In this document: piece by piece, positions 2,167 to 9,071 of the stretch
How positions within the stretch are numbered: position 1 is the stretch's first letter
How the letters are laid out: each line of letters starts with the position of its first letter
DNA from: a virus
Lineage: Duplodnaviria > Heunggongvirae > Uroviricota > Caudoviricetes
Reading direction: 5' to 3' (one strand)
Virus record (IMG/VR): IMGVR_UViG_2563366799_000006
Length of the DNA: 49,446 nucleotides
Made by a program: the position numbers and the translations under genes
Notes under the pieces: generated by a model
What the model saw: only the letters and a program-made list of their open reading frames with translations
What the model was told of the DNA's origin: nothing
Database searches by the model: none

Positions 2167-4977
2167 TTATGCCTGAGTACGCAGCGCTTCAAGGCGGCGC
2201 AGGTCGAAGTCGTTCAGTTCGTCGGTGTAATCAGCGGTGATCGGCGCTGGCCATTCGCCAGTGTCAAAGCCGGTAGCGATAGCGCGCATCGCCTTGCGGT
2301 ACTCGAGCATGCCCAGCTCTAGCAGTTCAGCGGATGCCTCGATGATGGCGATCCAGTGGTAGTTCTCGTCTTTGTTGACGAAAATCCAGAAGAACTGGTC
2401 AAGTGCCGCGGTCTCGCAATACATGGCGGCGCTCAGGTGATAGTCACGGTCGATGATTTCCCGGTGCAGTTTGGCGCGCAGACCTTCCTGCTTAATGTTC
2501 CACATGCTGATGGTTTTAAGGTCGGCACCGATGCGTACCCCGTCCAAGTCGATCTCAAGGTCAGGACGCACGCGGACTTCAAGTCCGGTTTCGTCGTCAA
2601 AGCCAAAATAGCTCACCTCAACAGCGCGGCTCGGATGCTGAAGCAGCATCCCGGCGGTTGGGTGCTTTAGCAGGGCTTTCTGAATGGCCAGTGCGGTGCT
2701 CAGCTGCTGGCGGGTGACCAGCACTTTCCCATGCGGATTCTCGCGCCACGCATCCAACAACTCGTCGGCGAATACGGCTTCCGGATTAACAGACTTCACG
2801 GCCTGAATCAGGTCTGATTTGGTACCGGACACTTTCAGTGGTTGGGGCTTCTGCGCCTCCTGTGCAACCAAGTCAGGATTGATGATTGCCAGCTGCTCGA
2901 GCAGCGCGTCACGGCTACCGCTGGTTTTCACCTGCGGCGGCAGGGTGGCGTTGTACTCTTTGATGCAGGCTTTCATCGCCGCTGCGGTCTGCTTCTGGTC
3001 CGCTTCGATCCGCTGGTACTCTTCTGGCAGCGACATGTAGCTCTGGCCAGTTTCCTCGACTGAACCACCCAGTGGCACCTGAGCAGGCAGTGTGGCGTTG
3101 TATTCTTCCAACAACGCTTTGATGTCGTCGGCGCTCAATTGCGCTGGCAGGCTGGCGTTGTACTCATCGATAAACGCGCGGATTGTTGCCGTTGTGGTGA
3201 ACGCGCCTTCCGGGATCATCGGTTCAACGCTGAACTCTTCATCAAGCTGCTCTGGCTGCAACGCAAGGCCGTGCACCAGGTTACCCATGTCCAGTACCGG
3301 AGAACGCTCTTTGGTGATCGTTTTGGCAACGTGGCGCGCATTGAAGTACATCAGCGATACACGCGCATCTTTCACCTGGGTTGAGCTGATACCGTTCGCT
3401 GCGTGATAAACCTCGTTCGGCAACCCTTCATAGCGGCCTGGCTCAAAGTAAGCAGGGTAAACAACAGCCGGTTCGTCAGAATGAGATTCTGGCTCGGTTT
3501 GTGCCGCAACTGGTTCAGTTTGGTTTACAGAATCGCTGTTTTGGCTAACAGAATCCGCATTCTGGTTTACATCGGCCTGCTGGCCGGTATGTGACTCTTC
3601 ACCAGTTTCCAGACTGCTTTCTCCTGACTGCACTTCATCACCAGCCTGTTCTTCATCACTGACAGTTTCTTCCATCTGCACATTGCTGGTGGTTTCCTCA
3701 TTAAGTGGTGAACGGTCATCTGTTTGTGTTTGTTGATCACCCATCAGGCCATCAATGGAGAATACGCCGTTGCCCATGTTGGCGATTTGTGGCTGTTTAG
3801 CAGCTGTTTTCTGCTCTGCAGCGACCTGCTCATTAAACTCATTTTCCCAACTGACGTCCGGCGCATGACCAGCATCAGCCAGCGTTTCTTCTGAGGGGTT
3901 TGAGTGGTCATTTTCGGTTAGATTGGCATTGATATATGCCCGCAACCGCCCAGGAAAGTTAACCAATTCGGATGATGTGCCGCGGATGAGTGCAAAGATG
4001 GCGGCGCGTGAATAGTCCAGGATGCCAGCGGTTTTGCGCAGCGCCTCAGACCATTCGCTGAACGGACTTTCTTTCTTGCTGACAATCTCTTTAGCGCGGC
4101 GGTAGACCCCACCAGGTATGTCGTAGATATTGAAATCCATTGGCAAGGTGGCCAGCGCAATTTCAACATCCAGAGTGTCCAGTGTGTGGACGTAGTCGGT
4201 ATTGCGATCGGTCTTATTTCCACCGCCAGCATTGGTTTTGACGTCAGTGCGTTGAATCTGCACAACACGGTTGCCTTTCTGCCATTCCTTGACCAGCAGG
4301 CCACGGTCGATGTAATCAGTGTTGAACCACACCGTCAGGAACTGGATAACTGTTGCCAGTTCCGGTTTTTTACCGTCGACAGGGAAGGCTTTCTTAACGG
4401 CATTCACGACTTTATGGATATCGTGCTCAATGGCTTTTTTGAATGCTTCCACATTCTCAGCAGCCAGCAGCAGGTTTTGGGCGTACGCGTTATCAGTGTC
4501 CATCTCAAGGCGGACAATCTCGTTTTTCTGACCAGCGTCGACGTGATAGAGATATTCACCATCACCGATGAACTGAGCCAGTACGCGCTGACGGAATGGC
4601 AGGGTGGCAACGACGATCAGGTTCGGCTGCTCTGACTGCTGAGATTCTTCTGCGGTGCTGTCTTCAGTATCCGCGTCGTCGACAGACTCATCTTCAGCCT
4701 GTTGTTTAACATTCCAGGTGCGCTGGTCTTCAGCCAGTTCGTAACGATCGCACCATGTGAAATCAACTTCGCCTTCTTCTGGCAGGTCGTTGTACACCGG
4801 GAAATCAGTGCGAATAGGTTTGGCGTAGTCCTTACCACGGCCGGTTTCGATGCCTGCATCTTCCAGTGCAACATCCAGCTGCAGGTTGGCGCGAGCCTCG
4901 GTTTTCGCAGTGAACCAGACCACTGCATCTTGTTTTCCGGATTTCTGAGTGGCTTTAACCACATTAAAGAATTCCAT
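2167..4977 (-). CDS. recE: RecE-like exonuclease VIII (C-terminal PD-(D/E)xK nuclease domain, acidic linker, internal repeats)
   Basis: 936-aa ORF; C-terminal region has RPD...GADLK, a PD-(D/E)xK-like motif; long D/E/S/Q-rich low-complexity linker; three copies of an EYNA(S/T)LP(A/P)QV peptide motif; immediately upstream of recT. Confidence 0.7.
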   Translation of the reverse strand: MEFFNVVKATQKSGKQDAVVWFTAKTEARANLQLDVALEDAGIETGRGKDYAKPIRTDFPVYNDLPEEGEVDFTWCDRYELAEDQRTWNVKQQAEDESVDDADTEDSTAEESQQSEQPNLIVVATLPFRQRVLAQFIGDGEYLYHVDAGQKNEIVRLEMDTDNAYAQNLLLAAENVEAFKKAIEHDIHKVVNAVKKAFPVDGKKPELATVIQFLTVWFNTDYIDRGLLVKEWQKGNRVVQIQRTDVKTNAGGGNKTDRNTDYVHTLDTLDVEIALATLPMDFNIYDIPGGVYRRAKEIVSKKESPFSEWSEALRKTAGILDYSRAAIFALIRGTSSELVNFPGRLRAYINANLTENDHSNPSEETLADAGHAPDVSWENEFNEQVAAEQKTAAKQPQIANMGNGVFSIDGLMGDQQTQTDDRSPLNEETTSNVQMEETVSDEEQAGDEVQSGESSLETGEESHTGQQADVNQNADSVSQNSDSVNQTEPVAAQTEPESHSDEPAVVYPAYFEPGRYEGLPNEVYHAANGISSTQVKDARVSLMYFNARHVAKTITKERSPVLDMGNLVHGLALQPEQLDEEFSVEPMIPEGAFTTTATIRAFIDEYNASLPAQLSADDIKALLEEYNATLPAQVPLGGSVEETGQSYMSLPEEYQRIEADQKQTAAAMKACIKEYNATLPPQVKTSGSRDALLEQLAIINPDLVAQEAQKPQPLKVSGTKSDLIQAVKSVNPEAVFADELLDAWRENPHGKVLVTRQQLSTALAIQKALLKHPTAGMLLQHPSRAVEVSYFGFDDETGLEVRVRPDLEIDLDGVRIGADLKTISMWNIKQEGLRAKLHREIIDRDYHLSAAMYCETAALDQFFWIFVNKDENYHWIAIIEASAELLELGMLEYRKAMRAIATGFDTGEWPAPITADYTDELNDFDLRRLEALRTQA
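2931..3178. repeat. Three imperfect direct repeats (~22-bp core GGCAGGNTGGCGTTGTAYTC) inside recE
   Basis: Copies at about 2931-2969, 3080-3118 and 3140-3178 on the + strand; they encode the repeated EYNA(S/T)LP(A/P)QV motif. Confidence 0.6.
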
Positions 4978-5116
4978 GTGAGATCCTCATTTTTGGGTGT
5001 TAGAATCCCCGGGCCATTGATAGCGCCCATTGGGTTAACTTTGGTTTTGATGTTGTTTCCGGTGTAACTTTGGTCGGTGCCACCGGACGTAGATCCCGCC
5101 TTGCGCGGGGTGTACG

Positions 5117-5278
5117 TTAGCCTTCGTGAGCCATCTGGTCGTGCGAAGCGCAACGTTTGGAGCAATACTCTTTCTCTTTGCGCGCCAGCAGTGAGCCGTT
5201 GCGATAGAGAAGGGTGCTTTTGATTACCTCTTCCGGTTTAACCGGTTTGCTGCAATAACCGCATTTCTTGTCTTGCAT
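5117..5278 (-). CDS. Small zinc-ribbon-like protein (53 aa, CGYC...C...C), below ORF-track cutoff
   Basis: ATG at 5276-5278 (minus), stop TAA at 5117-5119; hand translation MQDKKCGYCSKPVKPEEVIKSTLLYRNGSLLARKEKEYCSKRCASHDQMAHEG; position matches the small genes between recE and kil in Rac. Confidence 0.35.
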   Translation of the reverse strand: MQDKKCGYCSKPVKPEEVIKSTLLYRNGSLLARKEKEYCSKRCASHDQMAHEG

Positions 5279-5289
5279 GACACTCTCCG

Positions 5290-5655
5290 TTAATGGCTGA
5301 GGCCATTCCCCAGACCGTTCAGATAAACTTCAACCAGCAAATCCCTGGTGTAAGTCATCTCAACGCCGCGATGCAGATACAAACGACCACGAGCATTGGC
5401 TGATGCCGTCCAGGTTGAATCCTTGTGTTTGACGAGCATCCCCGGCTGAACTGCGCCGCGGTTTACTGTCTGTGTACCGTAGTGCTGATGAACCATGATG
5501 TTCTCCACTATTGCTGAGTGAACTTCGCTGGTGGTGCCGTGGTGCTGATCTTCACAGTTGAGCGTTTTAACTCTGCAGTTCACCACCGCGAAACCCACTC
5601 TTATGTGCCTGTCTTTTATCCACTTCAGGCTCGGTGGTATGCTGGTAGTTCTCAC
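5290..5655 (-). CDS. Hypothetical early protein (Kil-position); a shorter 5290..5496 form has a better RBS
   Basis: ORF-track 121-aa form uses a GTG with no RBS; internal ATG at 5494-5496 is preceded by a GGAGA RBS. Confidence 0.4.
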   Translation of the reverse strand: MRTTSIPPSLKWIKDRHIRVGFAVVNCRVKTLNCEDQHHGTTSEVHSAIVENIMVHQHYGTQTVNRGAVQPGMLVKHKDSTWTASANARGRLYLHRGVEMTYTRDLLVEVYLNGLGNGLSH

Positions 5656-5675: not shown

Positions 5676-5969
5676 ATGAAATCAGTAACTAAGCCATGTC
5701 CTATTTGTGGTGAAGATTCTTTGTCTTTTAACCAGACAAATCAGTTGGTTAACATCAAAGTAAAACCACCAACTATTCGTGAAGTTCCATCAGTGGTTTA
5801 CGTTTGCGATACTCACGGATGGTTTTCACTTTCAGAACAGATAAACAGACTCGTCACATCTAATGACGACCCTGCGGCTAAGCAAAAACTGGCTGTTATT
5901 GTCAAAGAGCGATATGTGCCGGAACAGGATCAGCCGTTAGCCCTGAAACCTATTGAGTCGCTCGCATAA
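5676..5969 (+). CDS. Hypothetical zinc-ribbon protein (CPICG...C.THG)
   Basis: 97-aa ORF with AAGGA RBS; rightward gene inside the leftward early region; 3' end overlaps the 3' end of 5950..6219 by 20 bp. Confidence 0.5.
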   Translation: MKSVTKPCPICGEDSLSFNQTNQLVNIKVKPPTIREVPSVVYVCDTHGWFSLSEQINRLVTSNDDPAAKQKLAVIVKERYVPEQDQPLALKPIESLA

Positions 5970-6219
5970 GGTCTTTTCGGCTCTCGCTGCGATATCCCAG
6001 GCGGTACATTTTCACGTAGGCTTTGCCGCGAGGAATGCCGCCTGTTTTGTTGAATCTCTGCTGGGCGCGGCGATGGTGTTTTGCTTCAGGGCTGTTTGAA
6101 CCTTTCCCGCCATTCGATCGAGAACTTGGGAGTTGCATTGGCTTTTGGCGTGAATAGAATTTACGTGCCCAGCATGCTCCAAAGCCGATCATGCCTGTTT
6201 TCTTCGTATTACCTTTCAT
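5950..6219 (-). CDS. Small basic protein, first ORF downstream of the putative PL (N-like antiterminator candidate by position only)
   Basis: 89-aa ORF, GAGGGG RBS, Arg/Lys-rich; lies about 70 nt downstream of the predicted PL start. Confidence 0.4.
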   Translation of the reverse strand: MKGNTKKTGMIGFGACWARKFYSRQKPMQLPSSRSNGGKGSNSPEAKHHRRAQQRFNKTGGIPRGKAYVKMYRLGYRSESRKDLMRATQ

Positions 6220-6298
6220 CTCAATCCCCTCGTTTGCCCTTGTCGCCAGGCCAGCGGAACGTTTGAACTTGATGCGCTTAGTGTTTCTCGATGGGGTG

Positions 6299-6340
6299 AT
6301 GATAGCTAAGGCGATTTATTTTATCAATCGCTTAAACGAT
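6299..6340 (-). promoter_or_regulatory. Putative PL promoter with overlapping OL operator
   Basis: Minus strand reads TTGATA (6322-6327), 17-nt spacer, TATCAT (6299-6304); palindrome ATCGC-TTAA-ACGAT at 6327-6340 matches the OR operator consensus ATCGC-N4-GCGAT. Confidence 0.45.
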
Positions 6341-6663
6341 AATATTGTGATTTTGCCGATTATTATTTGATTTATAAAGTGATTTATTTTTGTATGAGAT
6401 GCGTGATATGCTCAAAAAAACACCAGGCGGGGATATTGATATGGGTTTAGGAATGGATATGTCACGTGATGAGCTGCTGGAAGATCGCGCTGCTTTCATG
6501 GCTGGCGAGATTGGCGGTGCAGTTGTCGAGTAGATAATCAACGGTGTGGTGATAAGTCGAGATGCGATAGTAGATAGCTTGGAGACTAAGCGTCGCGCGG
6601 TTGGAAATGTGATTCACAAAGGAGTGTTGTGGGATGTCACTGCTATGGTGAGAAAAGGAATAT

Positions 6664-6686
6664 GAAAACCGGCATAATGCCGGTTT
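6664..6686 (-). terminator. Hairpin terminator at the end of the cI operon
   Basis: Inverted repeat AACCGGCA-taa-TGCCGGTT followed by a T-rich run on the minus strand, overlapping the stop of 6685..7317. Confidence 0.45.
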
Positions 6687-7317
6687 ACTTTGATTTTTCC
6701 TGTTGGTGAAGTACTCGTGGAGTAGTTGGTTCTTGAGGTAATTGGATGATAACAGGTTGCTGCGCTACTGGTTGAACTACGGGCGGATCACTCTTCAAGG
6801 CAGAAACAAGACTAGGTAATGCAACGACAACCGCAATGATAACGCCAAAAATAGCAAGCCTAGTGGAAATACCTGATTGAATACCGCCAATCGCAGTGTT
6901 TATTCCTGTAATTTGCCCTTGTATACCTTCGAATTTGCCATTGATGGCTTTTACATCCCCATCAACGCTATCCATTTTCCCTTCAATTTTAGAAGAAATA
7001 GAGCTAATAGATGAATTGAGCGATGCCAGCTGAACGTTCATATTCTCGCGTGACAAAGCCATTTCAGCTCTAATCGAAGATGCAATGGACTCCATCTCCG
7101 CCTTATTGGCAGCTAGAAGTGCTTGCATTTCTTCACGGCTAACTGATGACATTTCATTTCCCCCATCAGTTTCATTAGCTTCATCTGTTGATTTGATAAA
7201 GTTAGTATACATTTCTTCTTTATCGACGCGTAGTCTGTTTTGAACATTGGGGTACAGGTCATCTTTATCAATGCCAGAACCGCAGTCTGGGACAGCTTTG
7301 AGAGATGGGCCCATCAC
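6685..7317 (-). CDS. Coiled-coil protein with a single C-terminal transmembrane helix (rexB/sieB position, no recognised family)
   Basis: 210-aa ORF; long heptad-like Ser/Ile/Gly-rich region then hydrophobic segment LAIFGVIIAVVVALPSLVSAL; start overlaps the stop of 7314..7700 (ATGA). Confidence 0.6.
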   Translation of the reverse strand: MMGPSLKAVPDCGSGIDKDDLYPNVQNRLRVDKEEMYTNFIKSTDEANETDGGNEMSSVSREEMQALLAANKAEMESIASSIRAEMALSRENMNVQLASLNSSISSISSKIEGKMDSVDGDVKAINGKFEGIQGQITGINTAIGGIQSGISTRLAIFGVIIAVVVALPSLVSALKSDPPVVQPVAQQPVIIQLPQEPTTPRVLHQQEKSK

Positions 7318-7700
7318 TTCCCATCCTCTCCTTGATCTTCTTTTCTTTTATTAATCAGTGTCCTGGCTTTTTTATAAGAAAAAAGCAGTACATGTGCGCA
7401 GTGATCACACGTGATTCGAAATAGTGGCATACCGCCAGGATATGTCACAGCACTATCAGTATCAGGTTTGTATTGTGCATAACTAAGTGTTTCGATCACA
7501 TGATGTTTTGGCTGATTTTCTTCTACATCAAGATCAAAGGCACCAACTACAGACCATGACTGGTTCCCGCAGATTTGGCAAGTTATTGGTTTTTTGAATG
7601 AATTTATGAAATCAATGAACTCATCCGCTGTGATAATCTCGGAGTTTGCTTCACTATGAAATAATTCCGATTTCATAATTATGATCCTTTTCTGGGCCAA
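7314..7700 (-). CDS. Zinc-ribbon-like protein (CQIC...CDHC), first gene downstream of cI (rexA position, no recognised family)
   Basis: ORF-track 128 aa; likely start is the ATG at 7674-7676 (120 aa) with AAGGA RBS; 20 bp downstream of the cI stop, same strand. Confidence 0.6.
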   Translation of the reverse strand: MAQKRIIIMKSELFHSEANSEIITADEFIDFINSFKKPITCQICGNQSWSVVGAFDLDVEENQPKHHVIETLSYAQYKPDTDSAVTYPGGMPLFRITCDHCAHVLLFSYKKARTLINKRKEDQGEDGK

Positions 7701-7720
7701 AGTAGATAAAAAGTACAGTT

Positions 7721-8404
7721 TTACAATCGGTTATACTTTATTGATTCATGAATCAATGCCTTACCCATTACGTAGAGTTGATCCTGATTACCTTCGTTAA
7801 TGTACCACTTCTCATAAGCTGAGTTATCAGACAAAACTGCCAACCTATCGCCCTGCATCTGCAAGCGCTTCACATGGAAATGTTGTCCGAAAACGAACGC
7901 ATAAACACCGTCGACCTTGAAGTTTCTTACAGAAATATCGAAAAACAATCTGTCACCAGACTGTATAGTTGGACACATGCTGTCGCCATCGACCGTCATT
8001 ACTTTTACGTCTTCCTGAGAACGATTTCCGAAGAGTGAACGAGCGTGTTCGGTTGTGAACTCAATGGCGTGTAGAACCTCAACAAACTCAGAAATCATGA
8101 AAGAACCTGGCCCCGCGCTAAATGTCAGGTCAAGTACGTCAACTCTGAATATGTTTGAGTCTTTTTTTGTCGCGGTAATGGGAGGCGGTAGCTGGCCATC
8201 GTTACGCATCGGTCCGGATCCCGTGGAAAGCCATTCAGGGCGAACATTGAGAACAGAAGCTATCTCGACCGTTTTTCTTGAGCTTGATGCACCATTTAGC
8301 AGCTTGTTAACACTTGACTGTGCCATGCCAACTGCCTTAGCTAGCTTGCCCTGTGTATAACCCGCCTCATTCATTGCGCGATCTAATCGCTCAGAAAAAC
8401 TCAT
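7721..8404 (-). CDS. cI: CI-type prophage repressor (XRE HTH + S24 LexA-like peptidase)
   Basis: 227 aa; N-terminal HTH (QGKLAKAVGMAQSSVNKL); Ala-Gly cleavage site (FSAGPG); Ser in GDSM and Lys in HVKRL; divergent from cro. Confidence 0.9.
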   Translation of the reverse strand: MSFSERLDRAMNEAGYTQGKLAKAVGMAQSSVNKLLNGASSSRKTVEIASVLNVRPEWLSTGSGPMRNDGQLPPPITATKKDSNIFRVDVLDLTFSAGPGSFMISEFVEVLHAIEFTTEHARSLFGNRSQEDVKVMTVDGDSMCPTIQSGDRLFFDISVRNFKVDGVYAFVFGQHFHVKRLQMQGDRLAVLSDNSAYEKWYINEGNQDQLYVMGKALIHESIKYNRL

Positions 8405-8437
8405 TAAAGATACCCCCTAATAACCTTCATAAATATT

Positions 8438-8506
8438 ATCGCCACAGCGATTAATAAGCAAAAAATCGCATAGGCGATTGACATTCGTTAAAGCGATAAA
8501 CATAAT
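8438..8506 (+). promoter_or_regulatory. OR operators and PR promoter
   Basis: Palindromes ATCGC-CACA-GCGAT (8438-8451) and ATCGC-ATAG-GCGAT (8466-8478); TTGACA at 8478-8483, 17-nt spacer, CATAAT at 8501-8506; AGGAG RBS and cro ATG follow. Confidence 0.6.
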
Positions 8507-8533
8507 CAACCTAAATTGATAGAAGGAGCGATT

Positions 8534-8764
8534 ATGAAAAACCCTGCTGTAGAAAAAGCGATTGCAATCGCCGGTAGTCAGAAAGAGCTAGCGAAGCGAT
8601 GTGGTAAGGCCCAATCCACGGTCTGTGACTGGTTAAATGGGAAAAAACAAATCTCCCCGATCCATGTTCCTGTTTTGGTAAAGGCAAGCGAAGGACAGAT
8701 TCAAGCTCATGAATTCCGTCCCGACCTTCCTGAATTGTTTCCGCATCCACATTCAGCCGCCTGA
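8534..8764 (+). CDS. cro: Cro-like HTH regulator (ORF track 8516..8764 uses an upstream TTG)
   Basis: ATG at 8534 with AGGAG RBS; HTH GSQKELAKRCGKAQSTVCDWLNGKK; divergent from cI. Confidence 0.75.
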   Translation: MKNPAVEKAIAIAGSQKELAKRCGKAQSTVCDWLNGKKQISPIHVPVLVKASEGQIQAHEFRPDLPELFPHPHSAA

Positions 8765-8795
8765 CCGGCGGCGCTAACCATCAAGGGAAAGCACT

Positions 8796-9071
8796 ATGCA
8801 ATCACTTACGTTTTACCAGGATACAGGATTGCCGCAGCAGGCGGTGATAAATCGTGCTCAAGCGTGCAAGGGACCTAGCCATGAAGATATTCGTGATGCC
8901 GTTCGCTCATGGGCGGGTGTAGATGGTCAGGATGTCGTTTCTGCTCTGATCATCGAAGAGTACCAGGCGCAGGGTGGTGATGACATCACTTTCCCTGATG
9001 ATCTCTGCCGAAAGCGCCAGAAGCTGTTTCGCTTCCTGGACAACCACTTCAACAGCGAGCGTTACCGCTAG
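8796..9071 (+). CDS. YdaT-like (cII-position) protein, N-terminal part ending at an in-frame amber codon
   Basis: 91-aa ORF ends at TAG 9069-9071; the same frame stays open to 9335; YdaT similarity is from memory. Confidence 0.5.
   Translation: MQSLTFYQDTGLPQQAVINRAQACKGPSHEDIRDAVRSWAGVDGQDVVSALIIEEYQAQGGDDITFPDDLCRKRQKLFRFLDNHFNSERYR

Follow-up and report, generated by a model that had tools for sequence, protein, structure and literature searches.

What does a lambdoid prophage keep between its repressor gene and the promoter PL when rexAB is not there? This interval is the oldest known home of a prophage defence system, rexAB itself, and it is mostly unannotated in other lambdoid phages. 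We have examined it in a tailed-phage sequence of 49,446 nucleotides (Caudoviricetes; IMG/VR record IMGVR_UViG_2563366799_000006), the whole of which is referred to here as the window, and in which two minus-strand genes, designated A and B, lie downstream of a cI-type repressor gene. Our best reading is that the A-B cassette is lysogen-expressed cargo of the cI-PL slot, analogous rather than homologous to RexAB. The first-pass annotation of this DNA had treated A and B as a fixed pair belonging to an undescribed family. Both points need revision: the two proteins already fall in PHROGs 4293 and 5820, with relatives in phages HK244 and HK542 and, as gp49/gp48, in HK97, and sequence comparisons indicate that what is conserved is B, and that A represents just one among at least three partner families that replace one another. 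PHROG families and HK phage open reading frames (ORFs) were thus already known; what was unexpected is the modularity of B and its partners.

Both genes are present where the first-pass annotation had placed them, A (120 aa) at 7314-7676 and B (209 aa) at 6685-7314, and both were called independently by the RefSeq Prokaryotic Genome Annotation Pipeline (PGAP) as WP_016247090 and WP_016247089, respectively. They are not chance ORFs, because each has clear homologues: A matches phrog_4293 (E 2.5e-33, profile positions 3-123 of 124) and B matches phrog_5820 (E 1.3e-70, positions 2-198 of 200), full-length profile matches in both cases to PHROGs of unknown function. All database labels for the two proteins read 'hypothetical'. 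The preceding gene (7721-8404, minus strand) encodes a 227-aa cI-type prophage repressor that has an N-terminal HTH_3 domain (Pfam, 8.1e-8), a C-terminal Peptidase_S24 domain (5.2e-17) and a GDSM...K motif; it matches PHROG 4, transcriptional repressor (1.1e-57), carries the RefSeq name 'LexA family transcriptional regulator', and is presumably the first gene of the PRM operon. The gap of 20 bp originally proposed between cI and A depends on an in-frame TTG at 7700 that is probably not the start of the gene. The ATG at 7676, which is preceded by an AAGGA Shine-Dalgarno sequence 8 nt upstream and is also the PGAP start, gives a gap of 44 bp, and AGGAG-type Shine-Dalgarno sequences lie upstream of the A and B starts alike. 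Although the junction between the two genes reads GTGATG on the coding strand instead of forming the ATGA overlap that had been described, the A stop codon (TGA, 7316-7314) has 1 nt in common with the B ATG at 7314, or 4 nt (GTGA) if B begins with the GTG at 7317, and this overlap still implies translational coupling.

Terminator and promoter scans reveal no terminator-like or promoter-like site on the coding strand between cI and A/B. The cI-A-B unit is closed on the minus strand by an intrinsic terminator hairpin at 6666-6686, the counterpart of lambda Timm, with a G+C-rich stem of 9 bp that begins within the B stop codon; UUUUCAUAUU comes after it. The predicted fold has an energy of -14.9 kcal/mol (z = -4.33), and none of 200 shuffled sequences (0/200) was as stable. 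This hairpin looks bidirectional and is also used by a convergent pseudogene. The first-pass annotation had placed the terminator just before OL/PL; the hairpin itself is there, but the candidate PL lies approximately 325 bp further on, and the pseudogene fills the gap. The OL/PL candidate (6299-6340, minus strand) consists of operator-like sequences at 6302-6315 and 6327-6340, with one mismatch each, and an overlapping putative PL promoter (TTGATA-17-TATCAT, 6327-6299, 10/12 matches), the operator consensus of this immunity type being ATCGC-N4-GCGAT. On the other side of cI, a pattern search places the OR region at 8438-8506, with perfect palindromes at 8438-8451 and 8465-8478 and a third, containing two mismatches, at 8484-8497; the PR promoter found by the promoter scan (plus strand, 8478-8506, TTGACA-17-CATAAT, 11/12 matches) overlaps these operators. 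The resulting order, PR/OR, cI, A, B, terminator, an interval of about 325 bp and then OL/PL, matches that of lambda, and we infer that cI, A and B would be co-transcribed from PRM.

The same arrangement recurs widely. Approximately 50 B loci drawn from IMG/VR, NCBI, Logan and PLSDB were examined (given L numbers below where they must be told apart), and the B family, grouped at 90% identity, comprised 31 clusters initially and 159 when a profile was used, all of them from Enterobacterales. With the exception of two kinds of locus, B follows a same-strand prophage repressor, either directly or with one to three inserted genes between them. These repressors, which include S24-type and short CI-type proteins, form at least 13 clusters at 60% identity and come from Escherichia, Klebsiella, Enterobacter, Cedecea, Kosakonia, Yersinia, Salmonella, Proteus and Providencia. 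The small gene upstream of B has its stop codon near the B start, mostly in a 4-nt overlap and in a few loci 15-36 nt away. The partner that this gene encodes is a zinc-ribbon protein of 103-120 aa in the window, L005-L008, L042 and L045 and, distantly, in L044; a protein of a second type (T2, 143-162 aa) in HK244/HK542, Klebsiella, Cedecea and Proteus and perhaps in Salmonella L048; and a protein of a third type (T3/4, 84-101 aa) in Kosakonia, Salmonella L053, Morganella, Yersinia and Providencia, to which HK97 gp49 is weakly related. No similarity is detectable among the three partner families. Moreover, the N-terminal extension of B co-varies with the type of partner, having the motif L(K/R)V(V/I)GGSDF with T2 partners and L(K/R/Q)AV(P/D) with zinc ribbons, and being long and different with T3/4 partners; the one B that occurs alone has only six residues ahead of the conserved core and no extension. 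This co-variation leads us to predict that the partner docks on the extension, and that A would contact B in this way. Two IMG/VR loci, L006 and L008, have an intact B behind a partner frame that is disrupted or truncated.

Support for the identity of the slot is provided by HK244 and HK542, which have lambda-type cI, operators, PRM, PR, PL and N. In both phages, as the first-pass annotation had supposed for the window, a homologous cassette stands beside lambda cI where lambda keeps rexA-rexB, exactly between cI and the annotated Timm. HK97 gp49/gp48 is a more distant member and is located between cI (gp50) and N (gp47). The HK542-type cassette is present at 95% nucleotide identity or above in 51 E. 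coli genomes, about 1% of the complete genomes, and among the IMG/VR loci it lies behind at least six different repressor clusters. The exact A and B sequences of the window are found on about 830 and 920 public contigs, respectively, and 5 of 5426 complete E. coli genomes carry the 1.9-kb region at 100% identity, within a Rac-like (RecE/RecT) lambdoid prophage. A megablast search of the DNA against phage genomes gave no match; the relatives emerged at the protein level. The first of the two exceptional kinds of locus is a myovirus-type prophage of Morganella morganii (L051, 2705-4102), in which a T3-type partner and B lie far from any repressor, with genes for baseplate, tail fibre and tail-fibre assembly ahead of them and a Hin-like invertase gene behind, an arrangement that constitutes a second kind of insertion site. 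The other is found in Xenorhabdus bovienii (L039, 3992-4432; L052, 3001-4306), where a B of 146 aa, with neither partner nor N-terminal extension, follows an immI-like Arc/Arc/ORF6N antirepressor cluster and precedes a RelB/YafQ toxin-antitoxin pair. A true SieB gene lies a few genes from the cassette in the Proteus locus L050.

That the slot exchanges its cargo follows from a Rac-like prophage of E. coli H6 (L054), which retains the left flank seen in the window (RecE, YdaE and small ORFs) and holds a KilA-N gene and a gene for a 113-aa hypothetical protein (4678-5439) in place of A-B between the same flanks. The cI-N interval has been described as a mosaic hot spot containing the abortive infection (Abi) systems rexAB and bstA (Owen et al., citing Degnan et al. 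2007; PMC8585504). Around the identical cI-A-B block the prophage is itself a mosaic, because the RecE-family protein has 936 aa in the window (2167-4977, minus strand) and 1129 aa in L001 (7617-11006), and because the interval from YdaE to the cassette differs by about 630 bp between the window and E. coli genomes with identical cI-A-B. The G+C content of A and B is 38% and 42%, compared with 52% for the whole window, and this low value, together with replacement by unrelated genes, favours dispensable cargo over a core regulatory function. The inserted genes mentioned above are of two kinds. In L009 (2996-3337), as in L010-L018, L020 and L025, a gene for a 113-aa DUF3024 protein (Pfam 2.4e-31; phrog_3467) of unknown function forms a third co-oriented cargo gene between the repressor and a T2 partner plus B, and this arrangement is found in many IMG/VR prophages. 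In the Yersinia-type loci L037 (2562-3207) and L047 (2714-3088), one or two extra small membrane ORFs separate the repressor from the partner and B, which suggests that larger, multi-gene forms of the cargo region exist.

The first-pass descriptions of the two proteins, a Cys-pair zinc-ribbon-like A and a coiled-coil B with one C-terminal transmembrane (TM) helix, are borne out. In A, the pairs Cys33-x2-Cys36 and Cys90-x2-Cys93 are invariant (4/4 Cys) in 14 homologues with identities as low as 23%. The AlphaFold2 model is confident (predicted local distance difference test score, pLDDT, 84; predicted template modelling score, pTM, 0.71) and has a short N-terminal helix, a beta-sheet bearing both knuckles and a C-terminal helix; no structural relative was found for it. 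A is thus a probable zinc ribbon, with two conserved CxxC pairs joined in a beta-rich fold, and is predicted to bind metal. The protein is mildly acidic (13 Lys + Arg versus 18 Asp + Glu), and an exhaustive phmmer search of 1.8 billion representative sequences returned only 13 relatives. A distant A homologue (P0041, 30% identity) is encoded downstream of a short CI-type repressor in L044 (1617-2220) and L043 (442-1045), where the next gene specifies a tail-anchored coiled-coil protein of 96 aa with weak XhlA-like matches. We considered this protein as a B homologue and dropped the idea on obtaining an hhalign probability of 5%; it is counted as an architectural parallel only.

B begins with the variable extension (residues 1-55), which is acidic and disordered, and continues as an unbroken heptad repeat (residues 57-152) that constitutes the conserved coiled coil and runs without interruption into the TM helix. 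The heptad as a unit is confirmed by the insertions that distinguish B homologues, each exactly seven residues long. In the last six heptads both core positions are occupied by Ile, Val or Phe, and Gly is present at a fixed flanking position. The sole hydrophobic segment (residues 153-173; Kyte-Doolittle 2.66) is followed by a C-terminal tail of about 35 residues that is rich in Pro and Gln and contains the conserved motif QP(V/I)IIQ(L/V)P. Across 18 homologues with identities down to 42%, conservation of this motif equals that of the core; the motif is kept in HK97 gp48, although the distant members L042 and L039 have lost it. AlphaFold2 represents B as one long helix spanning residues 60-174 (mean pLDDT 57). 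Hydropathy and the predicted helix together suggest a tail-anchored membrane protein, with no signal peptide, a single TM helix near the C-terminus and the bulk of the chain N-terminal and cytoplasmic, and the coiled coil would probably allow B to oligomerize.

Comparisons with known families place neither protein. As the first-pass annotation had noted, no relationship to RexA, RexB or SieB is evident: against Pfam-A at E <= 1, A gave only a zinc-ribbon noise match (0.33) and no RexA, B gave no RexB and no other match, and neither protein matched SieB (PF14163). Searches of Pfam, NCBIfam and PADLOC with A, B and four alternative partner types returned only coiled-coil noise, the PADLOC matches being PbeC (0.019) and LmuB (0.013), both on coiled-coil segments. 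The NCBIfam model MakE, a member of the ClyA-type alpha-pore-forming toxin (alpha-PFT) group, is matched by 12 of 18 B-family members, with a best E of 2.9e-6; the match covers only profile positions 98-216 of 352 and scores 20.6 bits against a cut-off of 360. In addition, B matches the PDB entry SmhB (E 0.02 across 57 residues), and a profile search of PDB sequences gave only weak SmhB, apolipoprotein and haemagglutinin coiled-coil matches. The archaeal S-layer stalk protein SlaB is matched by 9 of the 18 B-family members, and some distant members have precomputed Pfam matches to CCDC90-like/DUF1640 (PF07798). Identification of B as a holin or spanin was rejected, given that the prophage has a separate lysis cassette and that the position is lysogenic, as was its identification as a tape-measure fragment, the PHROG tape-measure matches (E ~0.01) being confined to the heptad segment. 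No paper naming or testing these proteins was found in the literature searched, from which Degnan 2007, Juhala 2000 and Brenes & Laub 2025 were absent.

What, then, might the cassette do? The job that we consider most likely, and put forward tentatively, is that of a RexAB-like two-component exclusion module protecting the lysogen from other phages; a defence or abortive-infection function is suggested by position and architecture and by analogy with rexAB. In this model, the cassette would be a horizontally mobile moron that is read together with the repressor gene in lysogens. A, a small cytoplasmic zinc ribbon, would dock on the variable N-terminal extension of B, and the soluble partner would serve as the specificity or sensor subunit. 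B would be the conserved membrane effector, with its coiled-coil stalk running into one TM helix, and, when triggered, oligomeric B might depolarize or permeabilize the inner membrane so that the infection is aborted. We favour this model on four grounds: where the cassette lies, the order of its genes (soluble product first, membrane product second), the pairing of a constant effector with a sensor that varies, and the weak but recurrent resemblance to the ClyA family. It is possible, if doubtful, that HK97 gp49/gp48, the HK244/HK542 cassettes and that of this prophage make up one large unrecognized defence family of Enterobacterales, a plug-and-play Abi system independent of RexAB. We would give no greater weight to the associated picture of a tail-anchored, alpha-PFT-like effector, probably trimeric, that is armed by swappable sensors held in docking peptides.

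Several observations weigh against a RexAB-like defensive role. PRM, which would drive cI-A-B and must lie in the OR region, was not detected there by the consensus scan. None of the PADLOC-DB v2 hidden Markov models matched A, B or the alternative partners, and neither the accessions nor sequence fragments of A and B were found in the searchable parts of the DefensePredictor supplements. No exclusion phenotype for HK97 gp48/gp49 was found in the literature searched, despite decades of HK97 study. A has no nucleic-acid-binding signature, unlike the DNA-binding RexA, and B has one TM helix compared with four in RexB; a membrane anchor of one helix is not necessarily an effector. The resemblance of B to alpha-PFTs lies far below the cut-offs and could be compositional, reflecting a coiled coil joined to a hydrophobic helix. 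Finally, the conserved QPIIIQVP motif, if periplasmic as predicted, hints at a periplasmic interaction, for which entry blocking is a better fit than suicide.

Entry blocking is the basis of one alternative, non-abortive superinfection exclusion, in which B in the inner membrane would block genome entry through its periplasmic tail, its TM helix or both, and the partner would stabilize, target or regulate B. HK97 gp15, P22 SieA and T4 Imm are entry blockers. B is a membrane protein and belongs to the lysogeny operon, its tail motif is as conserved as its core in the 18 homologues, HK97 gp48 included, and entry blockers are common as prophage cargo (PMC3594210; PMC10883804). We nevertheless regard this explanation as distinctly unlikely, given that approximately 150 of the 209 residues of B and the whole of the partner are predicted to be cytoplasmic, that an entry block has no evident use for a cytoplasmic partner that varies and is matched by a docking peptide, and that the tail is a low-complexity segment of only some 35 residues, without the motif in the distant L042 and L039. 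The exchange of partner families against a constant downstream protein can also be accommodated by a toxin-antitoxin (addiction) pair, with B as a membrane-damaging toxin and the coupled upstream gene as its antitoxin, stabilizing the prophage or its immunity region and having defence as at most a side effect. A small upstream gene that overlaps the downstream one is the classic type II layout, co-variation of the N-terminal docking segment is compatible with direct neutralization, and the B homologue of L039/L052 adjoins the RelB/YafQ pair. The solo B of these same loci, however, is hard to square with an unneutralized toxin, and so is the survival of intact B beside the broken or truncated partners of L006 and L008. 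Moreover, no partner has a DNA-binding autoregulatory domain, and the promoter scan gave the A-B genes no promoter of their own, so that an addiction pair seems very improbable.

The cassette might instead have no part in defence, acting in lysis-lysogeny or induction tuning, in tethering a regulator at the membrane, or in an ElaB/YqjD-like stress or envelope function. RexA and RexB have likewise been reported to tune the lysis-lysogeny switch or induction. The near-absolute linkage to repressors of many types points in this direction, most defence systems being linked more loosely, as does the occurrence of the tail-anchored coiled-coil layout in non-defence proteins (CCDC90-like/DUF1640; SlaB, with its matches to 9/18 members). 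This explanation is, in our view, unlikely, albeit one to be taken seriously: the two exceptional kinds of locus are not in the immunity region, B adjoining tail-fibre genes in L051 and its setting being immI-like in L052; low G+C content and swapping with unrelated genes indicate dispensable cargo; and lambda itself does without the cassette.

A cro-like gene (8534-8764, plus strand; RefSeq 'transcriptional regulator'), divergent from cI, marks the right edge of the immunity region. The pseudogene convergent on B (6459-6665, plus strand), which derives from a gene for a 68-aa small protein and is a pseudo CDS in the RefSeq annotation of L001, is a partial match to phrog_3975 (function unknown), has an internal stop at 6531-6533 and ends at the shared hairpin, outside the cassette; an intact copy of the ORF is present in E. 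coli H6 (L054, 4441-4647). Comparable small opposite-strand genes also occur after B in L045, L053 and L003. The first ORF past the PL candidate (5950-6219, minus strand) encodes a strongly basic protein of 89 aa (phrog_29236, no Pfam match) in the position of the N antiterminator, and a CxxC ORF of 97 aa (5676-5969, plus strand; phrog_31519) on the strand opposite the PL operon has a weak match to Lar restriction-alleviation proteins (E 0.03). Rfam searches at E <= 1 gave nothing credible across 5800-8800.

The cassette family is common, with at least 159 clusters at 90% identity, and is invisible to current defence annotators. Its modular design is unusually legible, consisting of a constant membrane protein, swappable partners and matching docking peptides, and clean genetics is immediately possible because the family is present in model phages, HK97 included. 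If the cassette is defensive, it represents a new membrane-effector system together with a natural experiment in sensor exchange. If it is not, what has gone unnoticed for 25 years is a membrane function that is conserved, expressed in the lysogen and bound to the repressor operon.

Among known systems, the ClyA family offers a parallel to the presumed effector. In both, a Gly/Ile/Ala-rich helix leads into a hydrophobic, membrane-inserting helix, and B from GINTAIGGIQSGIST to LAIFGVIIAVVVALPSLV aligns to GINAAIDGAIAGIVVGGLLVIGGAIVTAIGAVAGLV of SmhB. B, however, has one hydrophobic helix rather than a helical-hairpin head, is without the helical-bundle tail domain of about 350 aa, and is an inner-membrane-anchored phage protein rather than a secreted toxin. 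The resemblance is, on sequence, a mechanistic lead and not membership. CCDC90-like/DUF1640 proteins and PBSX XhlA have the same N-terminal cytoplasmic coiled coil and one C-terminal TM helix, but the window B falls below either model at E <= 1, and their roles in mitochondrial MCU regulation and as a lysis accessory are no direct guide to that of B. A defence gene downstream of cI is known in phage 933W, where it encodes Stk. BstA of the Salmonella prophage BTP1 is likewise a lysogen-protecting gene behind a highly transcribed repressor gene, with a Rho-independent terminator, and its product localizes to sites of phage DNA replication (PMC8585504). In contrast to the cassette, the BstA system has one protein, which is cytoplasmic, and a self-immunity element encoded in DNA; it has no membrane component, and the two have no homology.

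The cassettes of the HK phages belong to the same family, HK24405/HK24404 of HK244 being the same as the two HK542 ORFs (GenBank EF120457/EF120458 for HK244/HK542). HK24404 shares about 77% identity with the window B over the core, and HK97 gp48 shares 29% over 146 aa (E 7e-13). Like A-B, these cassettes lie between cI and N, with a small overlapping upstream partner, and their members are annotated as hypothetical. They differ from A-B in that the partners are T3-like in HK97 (88 aa) and T2 in HK244/HK542 (144 aa) instead of zinc ribbons, in the N-terminal extension of B, which changes with the partner, and, for HK97 gp48, in a coiled coil about 25 residues shorter. With RexAB there is no sequence relationship at all: RexB is polytopic, with four TM helices, RexA is a DNA-binding protein of about 280 aa, in contrast to the 120-aa acidic zinc ribbon A, and Rex has a demonstrated function, the exclusion of T4 rII and other phages with depolarization of the membrane upon infection, whereas that of the cassette is a prediction. 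What the two have in common is organization. Each occupies the same slot, after cI on the same strand and ahead of Timm and OL/PL, and each consists of two genes with coupled translation, the first for a soluble and the second for a membrane protein, that are presumed to be driven by PRM in the lysogen.

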